A DNA stretch of 64,000 nucleotides from NCBI GenBank assembly GCA_964649545.1, contig CAZYPY010000007.1, forward strand, positions 4,698 through 68,697. The letters are read 5' to 3'. The notes under the pieces were generated by a model. It made no database searches and was not told the origin of the DNA. It worked only from the letters and a program-made list of their open reading frames with translations. The translations under genes were made by a program, and so were the position numbers. Every line of letters starts with the position of its first letter. The stretch's first letter is position 1. This document shows positions 1 to 51,046 of the stretch, one piece after another. Source of the DNA: an uncultured Microthrixaceae bacterium. Lineage in GTDB: Bacteria > Actinomycetota > Acidimicrobiia > Acidimicrobiales > DATDAH01.

Positions 1-52
1 GACCGGTCGACGGCCAGACCTCCACGGGTTCGCCCGACGAGCCGACCTGGCA

Positions 53-541
53 TCACGTGACGCCGCCGCCCGTCGCCGCTGCGAGCGGTCCGGGGCCCGG
101 CGCCCACGCGATCCCGTGGACGCCGCCCTCGATCGGCCCGACCGAGCCGAGGACGTCACCGTCGTCGGTCAGGGTGAGGAGCGACCACGCCGTGCCGACC
201 GCGAGGAGGTCGCCGGTCGGGGACCAGGTCAACGCGGTGATCGGCGCCTCGACGGCGACGGTGCGATGGGCGTCGCCGGTCACGATGGCGACGTCGCCCG
301 TATCCGTGCCCACCGCCAGGCGGGTTCCCGTGGGCGACCACGCCAGTGCCGAGACGGCGCCGCGACACCTCGTCGGCGGGGTGGTCGGCCGGAGGGCCTC
401 GCCGTCGACGAGGGCCACCTCCCCGTTGACGGCGCCGACCGCGATCAGCGCCCCGTCCGGGCGCCACTGGAGGTGCTCGACGGCGTCGCTCAGAACCTGC
501 GCTCTAGACACGGCAGGCGAGCAACGATGCGGCCAGGTCAT
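53..541 (-). CDS. WD40/beta-propeller repeat protein; stops at an in-frame TGA (53-55) but the frame stays open to the window edge
   Basis: Repeats such as VEHLQWRPDGALIAVG, VSALAWSPTGTRLAVG, ITALTWSPTGDLLAVG and VHGIAWAPG are WD40-type. Start is ATG 541 or GTG 511. It follows the COG0523-like gene on the same strand. Confidence 0.7.
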   Translation of the reverse strand: MTWPHRCSPAVSRAQVLSDAVEHLQWRPDGALIAVGAVNGEVALVDGEALRPTTPPTRCRGAVSALAWSPTGTRLAVGTDTGDVAIVTGDAHRTVAVEAPITALTWSPTGDLLAVGTAWSLLTLTDDGDVLGSVGPIEGGVHGIAWAPGPGPLAAATGGGVT

Positions 542-1499
542 CCAGTCCGAGGTCTCGACCGGCGATGCGCAACCTCGAGTGGCGGGGCGCTCCGTGCGCC
601 CACGGCGGACCCGGCTCGTGGCGGACGGCCGTTCGACAGCCACTCAGGTGGAGGGGACCGTCGCGGTCGGCGAGCGCGAGGACGGCCTCGATGCGCAGCA
701 GACGCGCTCCGGCTGCTCCGTGCAGTGCGTGGAGCCACTCCTCGAGTCGGTCGGGGTCGAGCAGACCGTCGACCGCGAAGGTCATCGAGCCCGTCCCGCT
801 CCGACCACCGGCCGGATGGGCGCCCGGCGCGCCGTACGGCGTGTGGAGCCGGGCGAGTCGTGAGGGGGTCGACGCGGGTGACCACGACGCGAGCTCGAGC
901 ACGTCGGCGAGCCGCGGACTCGTCGACGCGTCGACCCAGGCGAGCGGGTTGAGGCGTTGGATGGCATCGGCGACCCTCTGGATCCCGTGGGGCGTGAGGA
1001 GGGCACCTCGGGAGATCCACACAGCGTCGGCGAGCATGGCCGCGTCCGCGGGTCGATCGGACGGCCATGGCGACGCGGTGCTGGCGGCTGCCGTCGTCGC
1101 CGCGGGGCCGTCGATGGCCAGGAGCACCGCGTTGAGCCGGACGAGACGCGCCAAGTCGGGGTCGTCGAGCAGGGTGACGACGGGTGTCGCCGGATCGGTG
1201 CCGGGGAGCTCGAGCACGACGATGTGGGCGGGCGGGCGCCGACGTCGGGCGATCCGACCGAGGGTGTCCACCAGGTCGATGCGTTGCGCACAGCAGGCGC
1301 AGCCCTGCGTGCGGAAGCCGATCGACTCGTGGGTCGTCACCGTCTCCAGACCGGCGAACGTGGTCTGCGGCGCCCCTCCGGGCACGACGACCACGACCTC
1401 GCCGCCGGCGCTGGCCGCGAGGTGGCGGGCGAGCTCGTCGGCCCCGCTGTCGGTCCAGCCGTGGACGAAGGTGACGGCCGGTCGTCGCGGCTCGGTCAC
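504..1499 (-). CDS. COG0523/CobW-family protein with degenerate P-loop (putative GTPase-dead zinc metallochaperone paralogue)
   Basis: GCACC (CxCC) motif, ELPG at the ExxG position and a CobW_C-like C-terminus (LDPDRLEEWLHAL...LLRIEAVL). The Walker A position reads GWTDSGADEL instead of GxxGxGKT. The GTG start overlaps the rpmE2 stop (GTGA). Confidence 0.75.
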   Translation of the reverse strand: MTEPRRPAVTFVHGWTDSGADELARHLAASAGGEVVVVVPGGAPQTTFAGLETVTTHESIGFRTQGCACCAQRIDLVDTLGRIARRRRPPAHIVVLELPGTDPATPVVTLLDDPDLARLVRLNAVLLAIDGPAATTAAASTASPWPSDRPADAAMLADAVWISRGALLTPHGIQRVADAIQRLNPLAWVDASTSPRLADVLELASWSPASTPSRLARLHTPYGAPGAHPAGGRSGTGSMTFAVDGLLDPDRLEEWLHALHGAAGARLLRIEAVLALADRDGPLHLSGCRTAVRHEPGPPWAHGAPRHSRLRIAGRDLGLDDLAASLLACRV

Positions 1500-1744
1500 G
1501 TGCGCCGTTTGCCGTAGCGACGCTCGAAGCGGTCGACTCGACCCGCGGTGTCCACGATCTTCATCTTCCCGGTGAAGAACGGGTGGCTGGCGGCGCTGAT
1601 GTCGACGGTCACGAGCGGATACTCGACGCCGTCGATCTCGCAGGTCCGGTCGGTGGTGACCGTGGATCGCGTCAGGTAGTCGACCCCCGCGCTCGTGTCG
1701 CGGAACACCACCGGACGGTACGCAGGGTGGATCCCCTCTTTCAC
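1496..1744 (-). CDS. rpmE2: 50S ribosomal protein L31 type B (zinc-independent paralogue)
   Basis: [16 protein letters not shown]...[31 protein letters not shown]; no CxC/CxxC zinc ribbon. Confidence 0.95.
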
Positions 1745-1905
1745 CGCTCCTCCTTGAACGCGACGTGGCGGCGGACCTTGGGGTCGTACTTGCGCAGCTC
1801 CAGACGCTCGCGCTGGTTCTGCTTGTTCTTGGTGGTGACGTAGGTGAACCCCGTGCCGGCGGTGGAGCGGAGCTTCACCAGCACGCGCTTGTCGCTCTTG
1901 GCCAT
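1741..1905 (-). CDS. rpmG: 50S ribosomal protein L33, zinc-free type (54 aa; absent from the ORF track)
   Basis: Hand translation: [54 protein letters not shown], with no Cys. Its ATG overlaps the L28 stop (TGATG) and its stop overlaps the L31 start (GTGA). Confidence 0.95.
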
Positions 1906-2141
1906 CAGACCTTGATCCCTCGTGCTCGGATGGCCGCGACCACCGATTCGATGCCGTTGCGGTTCACGGTCTTGATGGCACGCGTCGACAGGGTCAACCG
2001 CACCCAGCGCCGTTCGGAGGGCAGCCAGAAGCGCTGGGTCTGGATGTTGGGGTTGAACCGGCGGCGGGTGGTTCGGTGCGAGTGCGACACGTGGTTGCCG
2101 AACCCGGGTTTCGCTCCCGTCAGCATGCAGATCCGTGACAC
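1905..2141 (-). CDS. rpmB: 50S ribosomal protein L28, zinc-free type
   Basis: [62 protein letters not shown] at 2141 with GAAGGAGGG RBS upstream; only one Cys. Confidence 0.95.
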
Positions 2142-2156
2142 CGAGCCCTCCTTCGT

Positions 2157-2175
2157 GGAATGAGAATCATTCCTG
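2157..2175. promoter_or_regulatory. Putative Zur box between divergent rpmB and cobW
   Basis: Perfect inverted repeat GGAATGA-GAA-TCATTCC (2157-2173). The core TGAGAATCATT resembles the actinobacterial Zur consensus TGAAAATnATTTTCA, and both flanking units are typical Zur targets. Confidence 0.75.
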
Positions 2176-2226
2176 CTAGTGTGGCTGGTCTCGCCCGCAC
2201 CTGCAACTCGCCTCCGGAGGCCGACC

Positions 2227-3459
2227 GTGGATCCCTTGACCGACCAGCGACTGCCCGTCACCGTCCTGTCGGGGTTCCTCGGGGCCGGCAAGACCACGCT
2301 GCTGAACCAGGTGCTGGCGAACCGTGAAGGCCGGCGGGTGGCGGTGATCGTCAACGACATGAGTGAGGTCAACATCGACGCGTCCTTGGTGGCAGGCGGC
2401 TCGGCCGCCCTGCACCGCACGGACGAGCGCCTGGTGGAGATGACCAACGGGTGCATCTGCTGCACGTTGCGCGACGACCTCCTCGAGCAGGTCGCCGAGC
2501 TCGCCCGGGAGCAGCGGTTCGACTACCTGCTCATCGAGTCGACCGGCATCAGCGAGCCGATGCCGGTGGCCGCGACGTTCCTCTTCGAAGACGTCGACGG
2601 TGCCAGCCTGGCCTCGGTGGCCCGACTGGACACGATGGTGACGGTGGTGGACGCCTCCCGATTCCTGGACCATTTCGACGAACTCGTCGATCTGGCCGAG
2701 CTCGGGGTGGCCCGCGACGACGAGGACGATCGCAGCGTGGTCGAGCTCCTGGTCGACCAGGTGGAGTTCGCAGACGTGCTCGTGGTGTCCAAGCCCGATC
2801 TCGTCGACGAGGACGACCTCGCCCGGGTGGTCGGCCTCGTCCGCCACCTCAACCCGCGCGCCCGGGTCCAGATCGTCGAGCGAGGCGAGCTGCCCCTCTG
2901 CGAGCTGTTGGACACGGGGCGGTTCGATCCCGACGAGGCCTCACTCGCGCCCGGCTGGGTGCGTGAGCTCAACGGCGAGCACGTCCCCGAGACCGACGAG
3001 TACGGCATCGGGTCGTTCGTCTACCGGCAGCGCTGGCCGTTCCACCCGGAGCGGCTCGTGGAGGCGCTCGAGACCGACTGGCCCGGCGTCCTGCGCTCGA
3101 AGGGCTTCCTCTGGCTCGCGACGCGCCCCGATGTCCAAGCCCTCTGGAGCCAGGCCGGTCTGTCGGTGCAGCTCGAGCCGTTGGCTCCCTGGTTCGCGTC
3201 GCTGCCGGAGTCCGAATGGGATCTCGACCCTGACGAGCGGGCCGAGCTCGCCGAGCGCTGGGACCCGCTGGTGGGGGATCGCCAGACCGAGCTCGTCTTC
3301 ATCGGGATCGACATGGACGAGGCGGACCTGCGGGCCCGGCTCGACCCCTGTGTCCTCACCGCCGCCGAGGTCGAGGCCGGGATGGAAGCCTGGGCCACCT
3401 ACCCCGACCCCCTGCCGGCGTGGGACCTGCTCTGCGACCTCGACGACGACGAGGGGTGA
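2227..3459 (+). CDS. COG0523 G3E-family GTPase, zinc metallochaperone (YciC/ZigA-like)
   Basis: GFLGAGKTT Walker A, GCICC, ESTG, SKPD and CobW_C (PFHPERL...[11 protein letters not shown]). GTG 2227 follows a GGAGG RBS. Confidence 0.93.
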
Positions 3460-3474
3460 GGTCAGGCGCTCCGA

Positions 3475-3765
3475 TCAGTGCTCGTCCCAGTGGCCGTCGT
3501 GGGCGGCGTGGCGGTGGCCGTCGTGGAGGTAGTCGACGTGATCGCCATGGGCCACGGACTCGTGGCCGCAGTCGGGGCCGTGGGTGTGGTCGTGGCCCGC
3601 GTGCTCGAGGTGGGGCAGGTCGCACTCGTCCCAGTGGCCGGCGTGCTCGTGGTGGGCGTGGCCCTCGTGGATGTAGTCCACGTGGCCCTCGTGGTCGACG
3701 GCGGCGTGGCCGCAGCCGGCACCGTGGGTGTGGGTGTGGTCGGCGTGGGTCGTGCAGGTGCTCAC
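3475..3765 (-). CDS. Small His-rich, internally duplicated putative metal-binding protein (96 aa)
   Basis: 27 His and 4 Cys. Two copies of HxHGxxCGHxxVxHxxHVDYxHxGHxHxxHxGHWDE. The start overlaps the stop of the upstream ArsR gene; an AGAGGA RBS is present. Confidence 0.85.
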   Translation of the reverse strand: MSTCTTHADHTHTHGAGCGHAAVDHEGHVDYIHEGHAHHEHAGHWDECDLPHLEHAGHDHTHGPDCGHESVAHGDHVDYLHDGHRHAAHDGHWDEH

Positions 3766-4073
3766 CGGTGGCTCCTCTCGTTGGCGTGGGCGATGGCGTC
3801 GAGCGCGATGTGGACGACGTGCTCGTCGGCGATCGAGTAGGCGATCTCTCGGCCCCGACGGCGTCCCGCCAGCACCCCGGCCGTGCGTAGGACCCGGAGG
3901 TGCTGCGACACGAGGGGCTGGGCGACACCGAGGGACTCGACGAGGTCGTGGACGCAGCGCTCACCGTCCTGGACCTCGAGCACGATGGCCAGCCGGAGGG
4001 GATGGGCGAACGCCTTCAGGAGCTCGCTGGCCGCCTCGAGACCGGTCACATCAACAGATGCTAATAGATGCAT
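3762..4073 (-). CDS. smtB: ArsR/SmtB-family repressor with alpha5 zinc site (SmtB/CzrA/Rv2358-like)
   Basis: wHTH (AFAHPLRLAIV...SQHLRVLR) and C-terminal DEH-x10-H-x2-E (DEHVVHIALDAIAHANE). Start is ATG 4073 or GTG 4049. Confidence 0.85.
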   Translation of the reverse strand: MHLLASVDVTGLEAASELLKAFAHPLRLAIVLEVQDGERCVHDLVESLGVAQPLVSQHLRVLRTAGVLAGRRRGREIAYSIADEHVVHIALDAIAHANERSHR

Positions 4074-4079
4074 GCATGG
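4050..4079. promoter_or_regulatory. Possible SmtB operator / AT-rich promoter
   Basis: An AT-rich patch in a GC-rich background containing ATGCATGCAT and ATGCATC-TATTA-GCAT, at the smtB start. Confidence 0.4.
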
Positions 4080-4274
4080 TCGACCAACCCGGCCGCGATG
4101 GTCGCCGTCGCCGCGCGTGCTCGTACTGGACGGGGGTGGCCTCGCCCACGAGCGGGGGCCGCACCCAGCGCCACCATGACGCCGACAGGCGCGAGTCGCC
4201 TGAGGCGGGCCCGATCCGCGGAGGGCGAACGGTCGCGGGATCGCCAGCTGGCGCCGCTCCCCCCGTGGGTCGGC

Positions 4275-5114
4275 TCAGGTCGGGGCCGGGACGCCGGCGT
4301 CCGACCAGAACGAGTCCAGCACGGCGGCGAGCGCCGTCGGTGCCTCGACCGGGGCCAAGTGGCGGGACCCCTCGATGACGACCACGCCGTCGCCGGCGCC
4401 GTCCAGGCGCCGAGCGTCCTCGGCGGTCCAGAGCGGGTCGTCGTCGCCCACGACGAGCAGCGTGGGGCACGTCGCGGCGGCGGCTGTCCATCGCAGGTCG
4501 GGACGCTCGAGCATCGCCGCGCGCAGCGATCGTTGCAGCGCCCGCCGGGCCGGCCGGCGCAGGGCCGTCGTCACCAGCGCCACGGCCTCGGGGTCGTGGT
4601 CACGGACGGAGGCCGTGAGCAGCGTGTCGACCACCTTGGCGGCGACCGACCGCGGGCCGAGGAGCGGGTACAGCGCGACCAGCGGCGCCACCTTCCGGCG
4701 TTGCTCCGCCGGCAGCGCCACCAGGGGCGCGGCGATGGCGGTGAGGGTGGTCACCCGCTCGGGGTCGCGTGCGGCCACCAGGTGGCCGACGTGACCGCCC
4801 CAGGCGTTGCCCACCCAGTCGACCGCCGGGATCCCGACGGCGTCGAGCACCTCGACGGCCGCGGCGGCGCAGTCGTCGAGGGAGAACCGGTGGCCCGGAC
4901 CGGGGCTGGCGCCGTGGCCGGGGCCGTCGACCACCAGCCACCGGCGCTCGCCGGGGAAGGCGGCGACGAGCCGGTCCCACGAGTGGCCGTCCACGAAGAG
5001 GCTGTGCCACAGGAGCGTGGGTGGTCCCGCGCCCACGGAGCGGACGTGCAGGGGGCCCACCCGGGTGGGCACGAGCTCCGCGACGGCGGCGGGGAGGGGA
5101 CGGGTCGCGGTCAC
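4275..5114 (-). CDS. Alpha/beta hydrolase fold protein with Ala at the nucleophile elbow
   Basis: LLWHSLF, VDGPGHGAS, VDWVGNAWGG, GDDDP and GSRHL. The GTG start overlaps the SRPBCC stop. Confidence 0.85.
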   Translation of the reverse strand: MTATRPLPAAVAELVPTRVGPLHVRSVGAGPPTLLWHSLFVDGHSWDRLVAAFPGERRWLVVDGPGHGASPGPGHRFSLDDCAAAAVEVLDAVGIPAVDWVGNAWGGHVGHLVAARDPERVTTLTAIAAPLVALPAEQRRKVAPLVALYPLLGPRSVAAKVVDTLLTASVRDHDPEAVALVTTALRRPARRALQRSLRAAMLERPDLRWTAAAATCPTLLVVGDDDPLWTAEDARRLDGAGDGVVVIEGSRHLAPVEAPTALAAVLDSFWSDAGVPAPT

Positions 5115-5566
5115 GCCGTCACCGCCTCGGGCAGCTGCTCGACGAGCGTGCGGAGGCGCTCGACGTCGCCGGTCAGGTTGCGCGCGAGCATGCGGCCCAG
5201 CAGCGGGGCGAGGATGCGGTTGACGCCCGTCGGCGTGACCTCGAGGTCGAGGCGGACGGCGCAGCGGTCGGGCGCCAGGGCCCGCACCTCCCGTGCGCCG
5301 TGGGCGACGGCACCCTCGGTGGTGCGCCACTCGAAGCGGGCGCCGGGCACGACCAGGGTGACCTCGCCGAGGTTGCGGTACGTGCGTCCGGCCACGACCA
5401 GCACCTCCACCGTGGTCGTCCCGGCACGGACGAGGCCGACGGGGGTCGCGGTCATCTCCTTGACCCCCGTCCGCCAGGACGGATCCTGGGCGTAGTCGGC
5501 GATGACGCGCCACACGTCCTCGGCGGGGGCGGAGATCTCGATCTCGTGCGAGAGGGTGATCGGCAT
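5111..5566 (-). CDS. SRPBCC/polyketide cyclase family protein
   Basis: IEISAPAEDVWRVIADYAQDPSW pattern; GGAGGA RBS before ATG 5566. Confidence 0.85.
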   Translation of the reverse strand: MPITLSHEIEISAPAEDVWRVIADYAQDPSWRTGVKEMTATPVGLVRAGTTTVEVLVVAGRTYRNLGEVTLVVPGARFEWRTTEGAVAHGAREVRALAPDRCAVRLDLEVTPTGVNRILAPLLGRMLARNLTGDVERLRTLVEQLPEAVTA

Positions 5567-5587
5567 GGTGGTTCCTCCTGGATAGGT

Positions 5588-5648
5588 AGTTCGGAACCGA
5601 ATAGTACGGTAGCGAAGATTCGCTGTCAAGATGCTCGACGTCGAAGTA
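5588..5648. promoter_or_regulatory. Three putative MarR operator sites in the divergent intergenic region
   Basis: TTCG-GAAC-CGAA (5590-5601), TACG-GTAG-CGAA (5605-5616) and CTCG-ACGT-CGAA (5634-5645) share a nnCG-N4-CGAA pattern. Confidence 0.5.
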
Positions 5649-5659
5649 CTGTGGCGGCC

Positions 5660-6154
5660 ATGCGGTCCGACGATCCCGTGGCCGGCCTGGTGGCGCAATG
5701 GGCGGCCGAGCGGCCCGACCTCGAACTGGCGCCGATGGCCACCTTCGGCCGACTCGGTCGGCTGCACGCCTACGCCAGCAGGGCCATCGACGAGGTCTTC
5801 GCCCGTCACGGGCTGAGCATCGGCGAGTTCGACGTGCTGGCCGCCCTCCGGCGGGCGGGGGCGCCGTTCACGATGACGCCCACCGCGCTGGCGCGCCTGC
5901 TCATGCTCTCGCCCGCAGGGATGACCAACCGCCTCGACCGGCTCGAGCGGGCCGGTCTCCTCGAGCGCCGCCCCGATCCGGACGACCGCCGCAGTTCGCT
6001 CGTCGTGCTGACCGACCGCGGCCGCGACGTCGTGGACGTCGCCGTCACCGAGCACGTCGCCAACGAGGCGCGCCTGCTCGAGCCCCTGTCGGAACGGGAC
6101 CGGGCCACGCTCGATCGGCTCCTGCAACGGCTCCTGGCCCAGTTCGAGAGCTGA
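5660..6154 (+). CDS. MarR-family regulator (TamR/PecS/UrtR-like)
   Basis: N-terminal QWAAERPDL, GEFDVLAALRRAG, SPAGMTNRLDRLE and DPDDRRS. Confidence 0.9.
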   Translation: MRSDDPVAGLVAQWAAERPDLELAPMATFGRLGRLHAYASRAIDEVFARHGLSIGEFDVLAALRRAGAPFTMTPTALARLLMLSPAGMTNRLDRLERAGLLERRPDPDDRRSSLVVLTDRGRDVVDVAVTEHVANEARLLEPLSERDRATLDRLLQRLLAQFES

Positions 6155-6266
6155 ACCGGGCTGGTCGTCGCCGGCGGGCGCCTCCTCACCACCGACGGCT
6201 CCCGGCGCCTTCCGGAGAGGCGAGCACGACGGCGACCGGCCCACAGAGGTCAGTCGAGACGGGCAT

Positions 6267-6302
6267 CCGTCGAGGGCGCCGCGGTGGCGACGCCCTCGAC
6301 GG
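6267..6302. terminator. GC-rich hairpin between convergent marR and methyltransferase genes
   Basis: 12-bp perfect stem CCGTCGAGGGCG / CGCCCTCGACGG with a 12-nt loop; no U-tract. Confidence 0.5.
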
Positions 6303-6314
6303 CCCGAGGTGCCG

Positions 6315-7241
6315 TCAGGCCACCGCCAGCGCCCCGGCCACGGCGGCGATGTGCTCCTCGTCGGTACCGCAGCAGCCGCCGACGGCGCGGAGGTCCAGGA
6401 CCTCACCGAGGCGCCCGTAGAGGTCGGCGAGCTCGGCGATGTCGCCCCGGTCGAGCTCGGTGGCCGCGTCGAGCTCGGCGTGGCTGAGGGTCGACGCGTT
6501 GGCCCGGATGCCCTGGATCCGTCGCAGCGACGGGTGGTCGCCGCCGATCTGCTCGATGAAGTGGGTGGGGTGGGCGCAGTTGACCATGAAGTAGGCGGGC
6601 GCGGCGTCCGTGGTCTCGTCCACCTGCTCGATGGCCTCGCCGAGCGGCTGGCCCGAGGGCAGCCGTCCGTCGGTCTCCACCGTGAAGGCCACGACCACCG
6701 GCAGGGCGACCGCCGAAGCGGCCCGGGCCACCCCGATCGCCTCCTCCACGTAGTTCATGGTGATCGCGCTGATCAGGTCCGCGCCGGCATCCTGGAAGGC
6801 CCGGGCCTGCAGGCCGTGGTAGGCCGCGGCCTCGGCGGCGCTCATGGCCTCGCCCACGACGTAGCCGTCGCCCCTCGGGCCGATCACCCCGTTGACCACG
6901 GTCGGCACCGTGGGGTGCTCGGTCGCGAGGCCGGCCACGAACTCGACGGCGTCCCGGTTCACGGCGGCGAGGGAGATCGGGTCGTACCCGACCCGCGCCC
7001 CCCAGTCCAGGCTGGCCCGCCAGGTCGGCGTGTCGAACACCAGGCCGGTGCCGGTGCGCTCGGCGAGCTCGAGGTAGGGGGCGTAGTAGCGCCGCAGGGC
7101 CCGGCGGCCCTCGTCGGTGCCGAGCAGGGGGAAGGCCGCGAAGTGGGGCAGGTCGATGCCGTGGTTGAACATGAGGGCGGTCTCGATCCCGCCGTCCATC
7201 AGGAACGGTCGGTCCGAGGTGAGCTGGGGGAGCGGGTGCAT
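6315..7241 (-). CDS. Homocysteine S-methyltransferase family protein
   Basis: LMDGGIETAL, MVNCAHP and C-terminal GGCCGT zinc-binding Cys motifs. Confidence 0.9.
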   Translation of the reverse strand: MHPLPQLTSDRPFLMDGGIETALMFNHGIDLPHFAAFPLLGTDEGRRALRRYYAPYLELAERTGTGLVFDTPTWRASLDWGARVGYDPISLAAVNRDAVEFVAGLATEHPTVPTVVNGVIGPRGDGYVVGEAMSAAEAAAYHGLQARAFQDAGADLISAITMNYVEEAIGVARAASAVALPVVVAFTVETDGRLPSGQPLGEAIEQVDETTDAAPAYFMVNCAHPTHFIEQIGGDHPSLRRIQGIRANASTLSHAELDAATELDRGDIAELADLYGRLGEVLDLRAVGGCCGTDEEHIAAVAGALAVA

Positions 7242-7282
7242 GGTCGGTCCTTTCGGGGACGTTGGGTTGACACCCGAGCAGG

Positions 7283-7309
7283 CGTGAGATCGCGTCTCAC
7301 GACGTGAGC
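7283..7309. promoter_or_regulatory. Inverted/direct repeat, candidate operator of the adjacent STAND regulator
   Basis: CGTGAGA-TCGCG-TCTCACG (7283-7301) plus a third half-site CGTGAG (7303-7308). Confidence 0.5.
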
Positions 7310-7347
7310 CCCGGCGGCGGCGCCGGGCCCGCCGTTAGGGTCGTCGG

Positions 7348-10017
7348 GTGGCATCCGGACCGCTGATCGGCCGTGATCGCGAGGTCGCCGAGGTCACCGC
7401 CCGGCTGGACGACCACCGTCTGGTCACCGTCGTGGGACCGGGCGGCGCGGGCAAGACGACGCTGGCCCGGGAGGTCGCCCGTGGCGCCGCGCGCGACTTC
7501 CCGCTCGGGGTGCTCGAGGTCGATCTCACGCGGGTCGGTGACGAGGAGACCGTGCCGGGGGCGCTCGCGGCCCAGCTCGGGTTCGAGTCGTTCGACTCGC
7601 TCCTCAGCGCACCGGCCGACCAGCCCGCGCTGGTGCTCCTGGACAACTGCGAGCACCTGCTCGACGCGGTCGCCACGTGCGTCGTCCGCTTGCTCGGCGC
7701 CTGCCGCCAGCCGACCGTGCTCGCCACCAGCCGATCACCGCTCGAGGTACCCGGCGAGACGGTCGTGTCGCTCGCACCCCTGCCGGTTCCCGGCCCGGGC
7801 GACGATGCACGCGAGTTCGCGTCGGTGCAGCTGTTCCTCGAGCGCATGCGCGATGCCGGGGTGGACCCCCGCACGGCCGACCCGTCGACGGTGGGCGAGC
7901 TCTGCCGCCGGCTCGACGGGCTCCCGCTGGCCCTCGAGATCGCGGCGGCGCGCACGCGCAGCCTCGGCGTCGCGGACATCCTGCACGGCATCGCCGAGGG
8001 CTCCGACGTGCTCGACCGCCCGCGCTTTCGGGGGTCGGCCCGCCACCGAAGCATCGACGACGCGATCCGGTGGTCCGTCGACCTGCTCGAGCCGGGGACC
8101 GCCGACTTCCTGGCCTCACTCGCCGTCTTCGCGGGGCCCTTCGACGCCGGCGGTGCGCGCGCCGTCGCCGACGCCGACCCCACCGCGGCCGAGCGAGCCC
8201 TCGACGAGTTGGCGGCGGCGTCGCTGATCGTCGTCGACGGCCGAGGCGGCACGGCCCGGTACCGCCTGCTCGAGACCGTCCGGCGGTTCGCGGGTGATCG
8301 CCTGCGCGCGGCCGGGCGCTTCGAGGTCTCCTACGACCGGTACACCGATCACGTCGTCACCGCGTTGCAGGAGACGCGGGCCGACGCCACGAGGATCTGG
8401 CGACCGACGCTGGTGCGCGACCTCGTGGCGTCGTTCGACGACCTCGCCGAGGCGCTGCGCTGGTGCACCCACCACGACGCCACGCCGCGGCGAGCCTTCG
8501 CGATCGCCGGTGCGCTCTGGGCGGTCACCCACCAGGCCCACGCCGACGACATCGTGACGCTCGTGCAGCAGGTCGTGGACCGCTGGCCCGACCGGGGCAC
8601 GCCGTCGGGCGCGTCGGCGGTGGCATCGCTCGCCACGGCGCAGTACACGACCGGCCACCCTGCACGAGCCGTCGAACTGGCCGCCGGCGCGCTCGACCGG
8701 CTGACGTCGGTGGGTGCGGTGGCGGTGACCCTGCACCGCGTGCTCGGCCAGGGCCACCGGGCCCTCGGGGATTTGGAGGCGGCCCTGGCCGCGTTCCGTG
8801 CGGGCGCGGCCGTCGGTCACGAGCTGGACGTGACGGCGATGGCCCTCGAGCTCGACGTGGCCGCGGCCGTCGTCGCCGCCGACCTGGGAGACGCCGACGT
8901 CGCGGTCCGCGACCTCGAGGCCGTCATCGACCGTGCCACCGAGTCGGGCTCGGATCTCACCGTGGCCTGGGCCCGCACGGCGCTCGGATGGGTGCAGTTG
9001 CGCATCGACCCCGTCGCCGCGTCGGCGGTCGTCGACCGGGCGCTCGCAGAGTCGGCGGCCATCGACTACCCGATCGCGATCGCCGCCGGCCTGCGCTCAC
9101 GGGTGTACGCGCACCTGCTGTCCGGCGACCGATCCGCGGCGGTGGCGACCGCCCGTGAGCTGGTCGACGACCTGCTCGGCCGCGGTGCGCACTCGAACGC
9201 CCGACTGCTGTTCGACGTGGGGGCGGTCCTGGCCCACGACGCCGGGCACGACGCCTGGCGACCCCTGGTCGCCGCGGCCCGATCGGCGCCGATCACCACG
9301 TTGCTGTGCGCCCGCTACGAGCTGGTCCCGCTCCCCGACGTGGACGAGCCACCCCGTCCGACCCGTGACTCGATCCGTCTCGTGCGCCAGGTGCTGGTCG
9401 ACCTCGCCTCGACCTCGCCGGCGGCCACGACGGCGCGGGCCGGCGGTGCGGATCCGGCCGCGGCACCGGTGGCACCAGCCACTCCGTCTCGCCCGCGCAT
9501 CCGCCGTGCCGGCGCGATCGTCGAGCTCACCTTCGACGGCCACACCGTGGCGGTGCGGGCGTCGAAGGGCATCGCCGACATCGTCCGGCTCGTGCAGGCG
9601 GGCGGTCGGGAGGTCCACTGCGTGGAGCTGGCCGACGTCGCCGTCGAGCAGTCCTCGACCGGCGAGGTGATCGACGCGGCGGCACGCCGCCAGTACGAGC
9701 AGCGCATCCGGGACCTGCAGTCCGAGGTCGACGAGGCGGAGGCCGACGGCGACTACGCCCGCTCCTACCGGTACCAGGCCGAGCTCGACGAGGTGATCGA
9801 GCACCTGACCGCCGCGCTCGGCCACGGGAAGCGCACCCGGCGCGGCGCCGACGCCGCCGAGCGGGCGCGCTCCGCCGTCACCCACCGCGTTCGGAGCGCG
9901 ATCAAGCAGGTGACCGCCGTGCATCCGGGCCTGGGCCACCACTTGGAGCACGCGGTGAACACCGGTACCTACTGCAGCTACCGGCCGGAGCACCCCGTCG
10001 AGTGGATCGTCGAATGA
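7348..10017 (+). CDS. STAND-class ATPase regulator (NB-ARC-like, helical repeats, C-terminal putative DNA-binding domain)
   Basis: [24 protein letters not shown] and CRRLDGLPLALEIAA; C-terminal ERARSAVTHRVRSAI...VNTGTYCSY. Confidence 0.85.
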   Translation: MASGPLIGRDREVAEVTARLDDHRLVTVVGPGGAGKTTLAREVARGAARDFPLGVLEVDLTRVGDEETVPGALAAQLGFESFDSLLSAPADQPALVLLDNCEHLLDAVATCVVRLLGACRQPTVLATSRSPLEVPGETVVSLAPLPVPGPGDDAREFASVQLFLERMRDAGVDPRTADPSTVGELCRRLDGLPLALEIAAARTRSLGVADILHGIAEGSDVLDRPRFRGSARHRSIDDAIRWSVDLLEPGTADFLASLAVFAGPFDAGGARAVADADPTAAERALDELAAASLIVVDGRGGTARYRLLETVRRFAGDRLRAAGRFEVSYDRYTDHVVTALQETRADATRIWRPTLVRDLVASFDDLAEALRWCTHHDATPRRAFAIAGALWAVTHQAHADDIVTLVQQVVDRWPDRGTPSGASAVASLATAQYTTGHPARAVELAAGALDRLTSVGAVAVTLHRVLGQGHRALGDLEAALAAFRAGAAVGHELDVTAMALELDVAAAVVAADLGDADVAVRDLEAVIDRATESGSDLTVAWARTALGWVQLRIDPVAASAVVDRALAESAAIDYPIAIAAGLRSRVYAHLLSGDRSAAVATARELVDDLLGRGAHSNARLLFDVGAVLAHDAGHDAWRPLVAAARSAPITTLLCARYELVPLPDVDEPPRPTRDSIRLVRQVLVDLASTSPAATTARAGGADPAAAPVAPATPSRPRIRRAGAIVELTFDGHTVAVRASKGIADIVRLVQAGGREVHCVELADVAVEQSSTGEVIDAAARRQYEQRIRDLQSEVDEAEADGDYARSYRYQAELDEVIEHLTAALGHGKRTRRGADAAERARSAVTHRVRSAIKQVTAVHPGLGHHLEHAVNTGTYCSYRPEHPVEWIVE

Positions 10018-10128
10018 CGCGGGGACCGGGGAGCGTCGGCCTCGGCCCGGCGACGAGCACGCCGCCGCCGGCGATCGCATCCGGCGAACCGCGGTCGACG
10101 AGACCGTCCGGCGGGACAACATGAGCAC

Positions 10129-10365
10129 ATGCGCACCCTCCTGAGCGGTTTCAGCGAGTGGGTCCTGGCCCATCCCGTCGTGTGGGCCGTCGGCTCGGGA
10201 GGCGCGCTGGTGGTGCTCGGCATGGCCCTGCATCTGCCCCCGGTCGTCGTCGTCGCCGCCGGTGCGGCCATCGCGGGGCTCAACATCCTGCACGCCAGGA
10301 GGCGGGGCTACTGCCCCCTGCCGGACGAGCCCGACGCAGCCGCGGGAGGGGAGCCGACCGACTGA
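10129..10365 (+). CDS. Small hypothetical membrane protein (about 2 TM)
   Basis: Two hydrophobic stretches followed by RRRGYCPLP; GC3-rich codons. Confidence 0.5.
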   Translation: MRTLLSGFSEWVLAHPVVWAVGSGGALVVLGMALHLPPVVVVAAGAAIAGLNILHARRRGYCPLPDEPDAAAGGEPTD

Positions 10366-10480
10366 CTGCCGGCGCCGCGTCGAGGTGGCGCGGACGCCGA
10401 GCCAAGCCGTCACTGTCGCCGTCAGCGAGACGGGACCTTGGGCCCTGTGTGGCGGGGCCTCGTGTCGTCATGCTGCACGT

Positions 10481-10771
10481 GTGAACGGTTCAATCACGCT
10501 TGAAGCGATCGCGGCGCGCTTCCGGGCGTTGGGCGACCCGACCCGGCTGCGGGTGGTGGCCGAGCTGACGCTCGGCACCCGGTGCGTGTGCGAGTTGCGC
10601 GACCGCGTCGAGGTGTCCGGTCCCCTGCTGTCCCACCACCTCACCGTGCTGCGTGACGCGGGCCTGGTGACCGCGGAGCGCCGGGGACGTTGGGTCGACT
10701 ACACCCTCACCCGCCAGGGCCGGGATGCCGTCGCCCATCTCGACCTCGATCCCAGCCGGTCGTCTCGATGA
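10481..10771 (+). CDS. arsR: ArsR-family As(III)-responsive repressor
   Basis: FRALGDPTRL, alpha3 CVCEL and SHHLTVLRDAG; ATGA overlap with acr3. Confidence 0.88.
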   Translation: MNGSITLEAIAARFRALGDPTRLRVVAELTLGTRCVCELRDRVEVSGPLLSHHLTVLRDAGLVTAERRGRWVDYTLTRQGRDAVAHLDLDPSRSSR

Positions 10772-11886
10772 CCGACTCACGCACGACCGACCCCCGTCCC
10801 GTCGCGGGGCGCCTGTCCACGCTGGACCGTCTCCTCCCGGTGTGGATCGGCATCGCCATGGCTGGCGGGCTCTTGCTGGGCCGCGCCATCCCCGACCTCG
10901 ACGACACCCTGGAGGCCATCAAGGTCGACACGGTGTCGCTGCCCATCGCCGTCGGGCTGCTGGCGATGATGTACCCCGTCCTGGCCAAGGTCCGCTACGC
11001 CCACATCGGCGACGAGCTCGACGACCGCCGCACACTGGGGTTGTCGCTGCTGCTCAACTGGGTGATCGGTCCGCTGCTCATGTTCACCCTCGCCTGGGTC
11101 TTCCTCCACGACCTGCCCGAGCTCCGCACCGGGCTGATCATCGTGGGCCTCGCTCGATGCATCGCCATGGTCCTCATCTGGAACGATCTGGCCGGCGGTA
11201 GCCGCGAGCTCGCCGCGGTGCTCGTCGCGGTCAACTCGCTCTTCCAGATCGTCATGTACTCGGTGCTGGGGTGGTTCTACCTGACCGTGCTCCCGGGCTG
11301 GCTCGGCCTCGACACCGCCGACCTCGACGTCGGGCTGTGGGCGATCGCGAAGTCGGTCCTCATCTTCCTCGGCATCCCGCTGCTGGGCGGATACCTCACG
11401 CGTGCCGTGCTCGAGCGTCGTCGCGGAACCGAGTGGTACGAGCAGCGGTTCCTGCCTCGCATCGGACCGATCGCCCTCTACGGGCTGCTGTTCACGATCG
11501 TCGTGCTCTTCGCCCTCCAGGGCGGTCAGATCACCGACAACCCCTTCGACGTCGCCCGCGTGGCCCTCCCGCTGCTCGTGTACTTCGCGCTCATGTGGGG
11601 CGGGTCGTTCGCCATCGGGTACCGGCTGCGATTCCCGTACGAACGCAACGCGTCGGTGGCGTTCACTGCGGCGGGGAACAACTTCGAGCTCGCCATCGCC
11701 GTGTCCATCGCCGTGTTCGGCGTCACCTCAGGTCAGGCACTGGCCGGCACCATCGGCCCGCTCATCGAGGTCCCCGCCCTCGTCGCGCTCGTCTACGTGT
11801 CCCTCTGGGCCCGGCGTCGCCTCTACCCGGCCGACGCGCGCGCCAGCACGTCTGCGTCGACCGGCGCAGCGTCGAGCCAACCATGA
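10768..11886 (+). CDS. acr3: Acr3 arsenite efflux permease
   Basis: LDRLLPVWI, MMYPVLAKV, LLLNWVIGP, GLARCIAMV, GNNFELAIAV and GPLIEVP. Confidence 0.95.
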   Translation: MTDSRTTDPRPVAGRLSTLDRLLPVWIGIAMAGGLLLGRAIPDLDDTLEAIKVDTVSLPIAVGLLAMMYPVLAKVRYAHIGDELDDRRTLGLSLLLNWVIGPLLMFTLAWVFLHDLPELRTGLIIVGLARCIAMVLIWNDLAGGSRELAAVLVAVNSLFQIVMYSVLGWFYLTVLPGWLGLDTADLDVGLWAIAKSVLIFLGIPLLGGYLTRAVLERRRGTEWYEQRFLPRIGPIALYGLLFTIVVLFALQGGQITDNPFDVARVALPLLVYFALMWGGSFAIGYRLRFPYERNASVAFTAAGNNFELAIAVSIAVFGVTSGQALAGTIGPLIEVPALVALVYVSLWARRRLYPADARASTSASTGAASSQP

Positions 11887-12045
11887 CCGGACGCCCCTCG
11901 ACGCGGAGTTGCGTGCCCGCTCCCACGATCATCCGTACGATGACCTGACCCGGCGGACGGTCGCCCCTGCGCCGATGCCCCGTCCGTGCCGGGGAGCAGG
12001 CCGCACCAACAGGCGTCTCCGGACCCGATCCGTCGCCGGTCGCGG

Positions 12046-12924
12046 TCAGAGCTCGCCGCGGGCGAGGAGCTCGACGGGGTCCTGGCTGTCGAGCATGCCG
12101 AGGTAGGCGCCGCCGCGGGCCAGGTTGTCGTACATCGCGTAGCCGAGCAGCTCCTGGGCCTGGCGGGGGAGGGTGGCGGCCACGTCGGGTGGAACGGCGA
12201 GAAGGCTGTTCTCCTCGGTGCGCAGCCAACCGAGGCAGTAGCTGAGGTGGGCGCCGCGGCGGGGGACGTCGGACGTGTTGGCGCCACCGCCGTGCAGCAC
12301 GCCGCCGGTGTAGACGACGGCGGACCCGGCGGGCATCTCGGCGCACACGACCTGATCGGGGCCCGGAGGCGGTTGGGCCGCCTGCTCGAACGGTGGCAGG
12401 TCGCGGTCGGGCCAGCGGTGGCTGCCGGGCACGACCCGGGTGGCGCCGTTGTCGGCGGTGAAGTCCACGAAGGCGATGACCGAGGCGAGCTGGAGCTCCG
12501 GCGCCGGCCGCGGGACGTCGCTCCACACCGCTTCGTCCCGGTGGAGCAGCTGCGCCTCGGCGCCGGGGCCCCGCTCGAGGAGGTGGCCGATGTTGAGCTG
12601 GTAGCGGGCGCAGGAGGGCAGGAGGACGGCGTCGGCGAGGGCGAGCAGCACCGGGTGGCACATCACCTCGGTGGCGAAGGTCCGCGAGACCCGGGCCATC
12701 CCCGAGACCTGGCGGGTGTGGGCGCCGTGGAAGGCCCGGATGATGGGGTTGAACATCGGCGCGGCGGGGTCGTCGGCGGCGATCGCCTCCTCGACCTCGT
12801 CGTTCACCCGGGCCACCACGTGGGCCGTCAGCAGGTCCTCGACGATGACGACGCCGTCCCGTTCGAGGGCGGCGACCAGGGTCGCCGGATCGGTGCTGAC
12901 CCCGAACCGCTCGATGCCGGTCAT
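12046..12924 (-). CDS. Phytanoyl-CoA dioxygenase (PhyH) family Fe(II)/2OG oxygenase
   Basis: LLHRDE (HxD), DFTADNGATRVVPGSH, LHGGGAN and LRTEEN. Confidence 0.88.
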   Translation of the reverse strand: MTGIERFGVSTDPATLVAALERDGVVIVEDLLTAHVVARVNDEVEEAIAADDPAAPMFNPIIRAFHGAHTRQVSGMARVSRTFATEVMCHPVLLALADAVLLPSCARYQLNIGHLLERGPGAEAQLLHRDEAVWSDVPRPAPELQLASVIAFVDFTADNGATRVVPGSHRWPDRDLPPFEQAAQPPPGPDQVVCAEMPAGSAVVYTGGVLHGGGANTSDVPRRGAHLSYCLGWLRTEENSLLAVPPDVAATLPRQAQELLGYAMYDNLARGGAYLGMLDSQDPVELLARGEL

Positions 12925-13040
12925 CGGTCCATCTTGGCCGCGATCACGGCCACGAGCTGGTGCAGCGCCGCCGACACCACCTCGTGGTGCGGACCGGTGT
13001 TGATCAGCCGGGAGCAGCCGAGCAGTGAGCCGTCGTACAC
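12921..13040 (-). CDS. Cryptic small ORF or gene remnant coupled to PhyH (about 39 aa; not in the ORF track)
   Basis: (T)LDPVYDGSLLGCSRLINTGPHHEVVSAALHQLVAVIAAKMDR*. Nearly all third positions are G/C, and the stop overlaps the PhyH ATG (ATGA). Confidence 0.4.
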   Translation of the reverse strand: MYDGSLLGCSRLINTGPHHEVVSAALHQLVAVIAAKMDR

Positions 13041-13087
13041 CGGGTCGAGCGTTCAGGACCTCGCCCATCCAGGGACGCCGGGTTGGG

Positions 13088-50715: not shown

Positions 50716-51046
50716 GGGCGGCCGTCGGCGCGAGGGCGTCGCGCAGGGCGCCGAGGCGCTCCGGCACGATCCGGTACCACGCCCACTTCCCCCGCTTCTC
50801 GCGGGTCAGCAGGCCGGCGTCGACGAGCAGCGAGAGGTGGTGGGACACGGTCGGCTGCGAGCGGCCCACCGGCTCGACCAGGTCGCAGGCGCAGGCCTCG
50901 CCGTCGGACGCCGCGGCCACGAGCGAGAGGAGCCGGAGCCGGGCCGGGTCGGCCAGCACCTTCAGCAGGCCCGCGAGCTCCTCGGCCTGCTGCTCGTCGA
51001 GGACGCCGGCGGTGAGCGGGGCGCAGCACAGCTCGACGGGGTCCAT
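50705..51046 (-). CDS. arsR: ArsR-family repressor with N-terminal CC and CxC
   Basis: ELCCAPL, LADPARLRL, EACACDL and SHHLSLL. Confidence 0.9.
   Translation of the reverse strand: MDPVELCCAPLTAGVLDEQQAEELAGLLKVLADPARLRLLSLVAAASDGEACACDLVEPVGRSQPTVSHHLSLLVDAGLLTREKRGKWAWYRIVPERLGALRDALAPTAALSR

Follow-up and report, generated by a model that had tools for sequence, protein, structure and literature searches.

We describe a zinc-starvation gene cluster, part of a genuine zinc-homeostasis neighbourhood, at the left end of a 64-kb stretch of DNA from an Acidimicrobiia-like bacterium (contig CAZYPY010000007.1; all 64,000 nucleotides are referred to as the window). Leftward from a Zur-type operator run genes for three zinc-free paralogues of ribosomal proteins (L28, L33 and L31), for a COG0523-like protein that has lost its GTPase motifs (hereafter COG0523*) and for a WD40 propeller. 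Rightward runs a canonical ZigA-type COG0523 GTPase gene, on which genes for an ArsR/SmtB-family sensor and a His/Cys-rich protein (hereafter the His-rich protein) converge (Table 1).

Genes were called from a listing of open reading frames (ORFs) combined with Pfam and NCBIfam profile searches. All eight lie where a preliminary description, made from the sequence, had placed them, with the start/stop overlaps and the 27 His residues given there. L28 and L33 are joined by a TGATG overlap and the L33/L31, L31/COG0523* and ArsR/His-rich junctions by GTGA overlaps, while the COG0523*/WD40 junction reads GTGTCTAG. None of the three ribosomal proteins contains a CxxC pair and their Cys counts are as in Table 1, which identifies them as zinc-free (C-) forms. 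Within the 64-kb window there are no second copies of the L28, L31 or L33 genes, and no Zur (FUR) or ZnuA gene. A scan of positions 1–4500 for E. coli-type promoters and terminators was empty, with no terminator-like site, and Rfam gave no match. In related loci (cited below by L numbers), a small extra ORF (…ELACTEPGCPPIETV…), absent from the window operon, was seen between L33 and L31 or upstream of L31 (L031 298–567 and L022 1–150).

Table 1 Features of the zinc-starvation cluster in the window
Feature	Position	Strand	Size	Basis and remarks
WD40 fragment	2–541	-		WD40-type Pfam families; N-terminal part only, cut by window edge
COG0523-like pseudo-GTPase (COG0523*)	504–1499	-	331 aa	Pfam cobW 32 bits, CobW_C 49 bits
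L31 type B, zinc-free paralogue	1496–1744	-	82 aa	1 Cys; NF002462 125 bits (cutoff 86)
L33, C- form	1741–1905	-	54 aa	0 Cys; profile searches
L28, C- form	1905–2141	-	78 aa	1 Cys; GTG start, preceded by GAAGGAGGG
Zur-type operator TGAGAA-TCA-TTCCTG	2161–2175			Matrix score and conservation in relatives
-10-like hexamer TAGTGT of probable rightward (ZigA-like) promoter	2177–2182	+		Directly after operator
ZigA-type COG0523 zinc metallochaperone GTPase, canonical	2227–3459	+	410 aa	NF038288 577.8 bits (cutoff 600)
His/Cys-rich protein	3475–3765	-	96 aa	27 His, 4 Cys
ArsR/SmtB-family sensor	3762–4073	-		HTH_5 52 bits, NF033788 89 bits; alpha5 DxH-x10-HxxE
17-nt element TATTAGCATCTGTTGAT	4050–4066	-		Directly upstream of the sensor's conserved GTG start; candidate promoter/operator

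The divergent operator and the ZigA-type GTPase

The region between L28 and the ZigA-like gene is 85 nt long and contains the operator. The preliminary description had read a Zur-like palindrome here, GGAATGA-GAA-TCATTCC (2157–2173), which is real and unique in the window (0.03 expected), but its register is 3 nt off. The dyad conserved in the aligned intergenic regions of relatives, TGAGAA-NNN-TTCNCA, lies 3 nt to the right and overlaps it, and the 7-3-7 register was therefore rejected as the functional one. The dyad forms a perfect palindrome in L028 and L030, and the operator recurs at the equivalent position in at least ten loci (L001, L006, L018, L027, L028, L030 and L033–L036). A Zur weight matrix, built from nine sites of other loci with the window excluded, scored 25.8 bits at the operator, compared with 14.6 bits for the runner-up in the 64 kb and a maximum of 15.0 bits in 20 shuffles. 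The site fits the Mycobacterium smegmatis Zur consensus GA-N-AA-NNN-TT-NN-C except for the final C (PMC7174638); measured against the box TGA-N-AA-NNN-TT-NN-CA, its left half is perfect and its right half matches at 3/6 positions.

The operator lies 6 nt from the L28 Shine–Dalgarno sequence and directly before the -10-like TAGTGT, a placement that allows a single site to shut down the two divergent units. A TAnnnT-like hexamer is conserved at the -10-like position beside the box in most aligned loci. The repressor binding here is presumably Zur; FUR genes adjoin the orthologous clusters in L005, L018 and L028, and ZnuA genes those in L018, L028 and L029. Further Zur-type boxes were found in L030 and in L001, the latter (AATGAGAATGATTCCTG, 5417–5429) flanked by WD40 and a gene for an iron-type alcohol dehydrogenase (ADH), suggesting that this relative may exchange ADHs to spare zinc.

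The rightward gene has all its motifs intact, including the G motifs, CxCC, RxKG and PETDEY. It matches NF038288, the ZigA equivalog model, over its full length and falls 22 bits short of the NCBI cutoff, in which it differs from ZigA equivalogs. In its motifs, its Zur-type box and PETDEY, a version of PETEEY, it resembles ZigA, ZagA and Nha3 (cluster 1 of the COG0523 sequence similarity network). An 83% identical ZigA-like orthologue occupies the equivalent divergent position in L001. In four loci (the window, L001, L030 and L033) the promoter region is shared with a ZigA-like GTPase gene.

The pseudo-GTPase and its propeller partner

The leftward COG0523 gene had been taken to encode a pseudo-GTPase, and its motifs bear this out. 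In place of Walker A it has GWTDSGADE, in place of G4/NKxD it has SRGA and in place of the C-terminal RxKG it has RIEA, whereas all three are intact in the ZigA-like neighbour; the invariant RxKG supplies the arginine finger and catalytic lysine (2026 preprint, PMC13001444). COG0523* retains CxCC (GCACC), the Glu-x-x-Gly motif (ELPG) and the YjiA fold. Its scores for Pfam cobW and CobW_C are both above the cutoffs, and YjiA is both its sole sequence match in the Protein Data Bank (PDB; E 9e-37, full length) and the best fold match to its AlphaFold2 (AF2) model (TM 0.66–0.70). That model, made from 24 sequences, reached a pLDDT of 89; an earlier five-sequence model had reached 60.

The same losses run through the window's clade, in which homologues 92, 63, 56 and 41% identical to COG0523* carry GW(T/L)DSGA(D/E) for Walker A and SRGA or GGD for the NKxD box, and retain Glu-x-x-Gly and CxCC. 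An exhaustive profile search yielded 78 representatives below 1e-30. Motifs were read in the best 35 representative hits (P0126–P0160) and tabulated for 24 of these plus five locus proteins; these relatives of about 320 aa lack NKxD and the RxKG lysine, and most lack Walker A as well. Across 24 sequences the first and the last Cys of CxCC never vary, and most of the sequences have C at the middle position as well. Walker A is intact in P0133–P0136, P0139, P0142, P0144 and the short COG0523 of L030, which still lack NKxD and the RxKG lysine, and motif loss across the subfamily would thus seem to have been stepwise.

Selection on COG0523* is relaxed but purifying. Its ratio of non-synonymous to synonymous substitution rates (dN/dS, omega) is 0.31–0.45 versus 0.10–0.15 for L28, L31 and the ZigA-like gene, and the wider omega range of 0.31–0.58, clearly below 1, also indicates purifying selection. 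The full-length alignment of COG0523* with the intact, WD40-coupled COG0523 of L018 (E 2e-20) is better than that with the adjacent ZigA-like protein (E 2e-12); this points to an origin in which a COG0523/WD40 pair was duplicated and the GTPase motifs of one copy may then have been lost. Orthology with Mrf, the mycobacterial COG0523-like protein discussed below, was rejected, as the Mrf model NF047431 (cutoff 375 bits) gave no match to COG0523* at E<=0.01 and 23 bits for the best of five relatives. Close relatives of COG0523* were found in only 1 of 185,579 GTDB species genomes; a metagenome scan used an eight-sequence alignment as its query.

A WD40 gene comes straight after a short COG0523 gene in 15 gene pairs from 13 distinct loci (window, L001, L005, L006, L018 twice, L022, L025, L026, L028 twice, L032, L033, L044 and L046), and this adjacency persists down to about 30% identity. 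The whole order L28-L33-L31-COG0523*-WD40, for which synteny in relatives had been predicted, is conserved in L001–L010 and L021, and what the short contigs L022 and L027 show agrees with it. L018 carries two pairs: one with an intact GTPase in a FUR-COG0523-WD40-p121-p72 operon opposite ZnuA, and one with a motif-less COG0523 after L33. The operon of this second pair, L33-COG0523*-WD40, is headed by a DUF1826 gene (L018 5177–5794).

The WD40 gene of the window starts at ATG 541 or GTG 513 and has an in-frame TGA at 53–55 that the preliminary description had missed. The codon is TGG (Trp) in L006, where the gene is intact (355 aa; 93% nucleotide identity). The 52 nt beyond the TGA are still in frame and conserved, so the stop is either a nonsense mutation or a sequencing or assembly error. 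Full-length orthologues have 322–355 aa; the window therefore holds less than half of the gene, and a homologue search with its 162-aa fragment returned generic WD40 proteins only, not the orthologues seen in the loci. In three relatives the propeller gene is followed by one for a protein of 72–75 aa (p75 or p72; L006 3785–4012, L018 8815–9033 and L032 9847–10044) that belongs to no Pfam or NCBIfam family, and such a gene would here sit just beyond window position 1. A 121-aa Cys-rich protein of no family (CRGCCCGTSKHP...) is encoded between WD40 and p72 in L018 (9030–9395).

The SmtB-type sensor and the His-rich protein

The identification of an alpha5 SmtB-type sensor held up in its helix-turn-helix domain and ligand pattern, and the GTGA overlap couples its translation to that of the His-rich protein. 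The same sensor is coupled to a His-rich gene in the window, L015, L018, L028 and L032, and the DxH-x10-HxxE ligands are conserved in all five orthologues; the window's sensor also carries RCVHDL in alpha3. Comparison with relatives places its conserved start probably at GTG 4049 rather than ATG 4073. Upstream of the sensor gene there is no convincing 12-2-12 inverted repeat of the SmtB operator type; what was found there is the 17-nt element, of which 16 nt are identical in L018 at the equivalent position.

The His-rich protein consists of two modules of about 45 aa with the pattern H-x2-H-x-H-x-HG-x2-CGH ... HVDYxHDGHxH ... GHxDE, and matches no Pfam or NCBIfam family. We found 227 homologues, in Streptomyces, Corynebacterium, Actinomadura, Myxococcota and others. 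Among 29 sequences, 20 columns of H, C, D, Y or G are invariant, 18 of them His, Cys or Asp. Several homologues (P0021, P0033, P0037, P0043 and P0097) carry the name 'threonine dehydratase' in public databases, apparently through misannotation. The gene is solitary in Streptomyces, Corynebacterium and Nannocystis; in Nannocystis (L017 2679–4357) it is divergent from a phytochelatin-synthase-like gene.

As in cyanobacterial SmtB–SmtA, an alpha5 sensor is coupled here to a small putative metal-binding protein. Unlike SmtA, that protein is His-dominated, has 96 aa in two modules and shows no similarity to Cys-rich metallothioneins; unlike smtA, its gene is predicted to be co-transcribed with the sensor gene rather than divergent from it, and no exporter gene is present. 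Zinc is the metal that we take the pair to handle. His-rich proteins often bind nickel or cobalt, and several alpha5-type ArsR sensors, NmtR and KmtR among them, are specific for these metals; a response to nickel or cobalt, or a general buffering of divalent metals, would also suit a protein that matches no known family. We regard this as quite improbable, since DxH-x10-HxxE is the SmtB ligand pattern and is conserved, the pair repeatedly stands among Zur, ZnuA, alternative ribosomal protein (altRP) and COG0523 genes, and in L028 it lies directly upstream of a FUR gene. The L028 order ArsR-His-rich-FUR recalls mycobacteria, in which smtB and zur form one operon (PMC7174638).

The preliminary description had set responses to zinc starvation and zinc excess side by side at this locus. 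Such co-location does recur, with the sensor/His-rich pair beside Zur-type genes in four different orders: convergent with the ZigA-like gene in the window, convergent with WD40 in L018, on one strand as ArsR-His-rich-FUR-COG0523*-WD40 in L028 and as ...WD40-p75-ArsR-His-rich in L032. It is not a fixed unit, being absent beside the operon in L001/L002 and from L005, a short contig that does not include the part upstream of L28; the link between starvation and excess is therefore recurrent but not obligatory. In a sister strain (L006/L007, 94–97% nucleotide identity, different sequencing runs) the pair has been deleted. Window intervals 2215–2499, 2844–3469 and 3673–4063 are missing there (mapped at L006 376–1013 and L007 1218–1855), which destroys the ZigA-like gene, the sensor and half of the His-rich gene and leaves the left operon intact; window 4160–13087, about 8.9 kb, is missing as well. 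Together with the TGA in the window's WD40 gene, these deletions indicate that either side can be lost in close relatives.

Losses of this kind, the solitary His-rich genes of other bacteria, the interrupted propeller, the relaxed omega of about 0.3–0.6 and the scarcity of close COG0523* relatives among GTDB species would all be expected if independent modules had come together by chance and the pseudo-GTPase and WD40 genes were decaying remnants with little function here. We think this unlikely: four gene orders that bring ArsR-His-rich beside Zur-type genes are hard to obtain by chance, and the COG0523*/WD40 genes are still adjacent at identities near 30%, while omega is well under 1 and CxCC is kept.

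Proposed roles and known precedents

We give a probability of about 0.6 to a joint reading in which Zur controls both divergent units, the SmtB/His-rich module answers metal excess and COG0523* with its propeller serves as a nucleotide-independent adaptor on the ribosome side. Leftward, the operator would control the operon of zinc-free L28, L33 and L31, COG0523* and its WD40 partner, which in relatives ends with the p75-type gene, here probably past the window edge; rightward, the same operator would control the ZigA-type metallochaperone. When zinc is scarce, Zur would leave the DNA, the C- proteins would replace zinc-binding ribosomal proteins and the ZigA-like GTPase would re-allocate zinc. 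COG0523* would derive from the WD40-coupled (ZNG1-like, 'subfamily 5') COG0523 lineage, with CxCC and fold kept and nucleotide motifs lost. Because Walker A, NKxD and the RxKG lysine are gone, it should be unable to act as a GTP-driven insertase, and together with the propeller it would most likely form a zinc-binding adaptor at or around the remodelled ribosome. At zinc excess, the sensor would derepress the His-rich protein as a cytosolic metal buffer, following the logic of SmtB–SmtA. The gene identities, the motif losses, the conservation of the operator and the synteny are established by the sequences; Zur binding, metal specificity and all contacts among these proteins and with the ribosome are inferred.

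The ribosomal role is proposed because a motif-less COG0523-like protein has one in mycobacteria. Their C- operon codes for Mrf (MSMEG_6069, the Rv0106 homologue), a ribosome-binding protein that recruits the hibernation factor MPY (PMC6094098); 30S binding and recruitment of a protein-Y type factor are its defining traits. Rv0106 itself is COG0523-like, lacks the GTPase motifs and has CXSC (Haas et al. 2009, PMC2770081). The window operon resembles this C- (altRP)/Mrf operon in joining zinc-free paralogues and a COG0523-like protein without GTPase motifs behind a Zur box, and its divergent L28 and COG0523 genes match the layout of Rv0105c/Rv0106. A second, ZigA-type COG0523 under Zur-type control is a further likeness, ZigA and Mrf both being under Zur in M. 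smegmatis (PMC11672702), although here the regulation is predicted from the box. Unlike the mycobacterial operon, that of the window lacks S14 and S18 paralogues. COG0523* also differs from Mrf in its length (about 330 aa versus about 400), in having CxCC where Rv0106 has CXSC and in always being followed by a WD40 gene, for which the literature examined reports no counterpart with Mrf. Its CxCC and the missing match to the Mrf model make the analogy one of function, not homology.

A second precedent is provided by the Zur-regulated znuCBA-COG0523-5-WD40 operons of Bradyrhizobium, Nitrobacter and Rhodopseudomonas (Haas et al. 2009, PMC2770081), in which, as in the window, a WD40 gene immediately follows COG0523 under a Zur site (predicted in our case). 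The intact-GTPase pair of L018, downstream of FUR and opposite ZnuA, is exactly of this type. COG0523* departs from it in lacking Walker A, NKxD and the RxKG lysine, and its pair lies in an altRP rather than a znu operon and in an actinobacterial (Acidimicrobiia-like) genome. These operons also lend themselves to a role apart from the ribosome, as a GTP-independent zinc holdase or hand-off factor in which CxCC would capture zinc, for instance zinc set free from C+ proteins, and the propeller would dock a client or the ZigA-like GTPase. Such a role, in line with the preliminary description's proposal that zinc from ribosomes could pass among the two COG0523 proteins, the propeller and the His-rich protein, is possible, if less than likely. 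It would account for the retention of CxCC while the nucleotide motifs decay, for the same pair in FUR/ZnuA operons and at one locus without any ribosomal genes, for the alpha-proteobacterial pair that sits after znuCBA (PMC2770081) and for the promoter region shared with the ZigA-like GTPase in four loci. Metal ligands were not noticed in the propeller (visual inspection; no alignment computed), however, the interaction that the role calls for is itself a proposal, and L006/L007 keep the pair although the ZigA-like gene is destroyed, so the pair is not strictly dependent on that GTPase.

Several points weigh against the ribosome-side adaptor under Zur control. The premature stop means that the pseudo-GTPase/WD40 module may be inactive in this genome, and omega for COG0523* is 3–4 times that of neighbouring genes. 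The same visual inspection of the WD40 orthologues brought no conserved cluster of His and Cys to notice, the pair in L046 sits away from ribosomal genes, and homology with Mrf is contradicted by the model search and by CxCC in place of CXSC. On the regulatory side, the window holds no Zur gene and the right half-site of the operator is imperfect; sequence does not reveal for which metal the sensor and the His-rich protein are specific. A bolder version of the adaptor reading is a long shot: COG0523*, WD40 and p75 might form a zinc-sensing, nucleotide-independent ribosome-docking complex with the propeller as a RACK1-like scaffold, an independent reinvention of Mrf-type hibernation control from the ZNG1-like lineage, and the His-rich protein might be a new histidine-based class of bacterial metallothionein under SmtB.

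The preliminary description had known no described system with this gene combination. Precedents for altRP/COG0523, COG0523-WD40 and smtB-zur combinations have been published (PMC2770081, PMC6094098 and PMC7174638), and most parts are thus known; the motif-less chaperone/propeller pair and the His-rich protein are undescribed variants. In the literature examined we found no description of a CxCC-retaining, motif-less COG0523 subfamily tied to WD40, of its placement in altRP operons or of the His-rich family, and nothing on the His-rich motif or on COG0523-WD40 function beyond Haas 2009. From bacteria to humans (ZNG1), the main candidates for zinc metallochaperones are COG0523 proteins, whose WD40 neighbours have long been noted. 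This lineage offers a natural experiment, in that the chaperone scaffold and propeller are kept beside zinc-free ribosomal genes and the GTP-handling motifs have been discarded: it lets one ask what job the CxCC/propeller pair does without nucleotide hydrolysis, and whether Mrf-like ribosome control extends beyond mycobacteria. The His-rich family is a candidate new cytosolic metal buffer.

Elsewhere in the window, a near-perfect palindrome (TGAGATCGCGTCTCA, 7285–7299) scored 14.6 bits with the Zur matrix, the level of the best shuffled hits; it is flanked by a homocysteine S-methyltransferase gene (6315–7241, - strand) and a gene for an 889-aa AAA_16 protein (7348–10017, + strand). A second gene of the ArsR family forms an overlapping pair with a gene for an SBF/ACR3-type transporter (10499–11886), apparently for arsenite resistance and without relation to zinc, and a third ArsR paralogue lies at 50753–50968.

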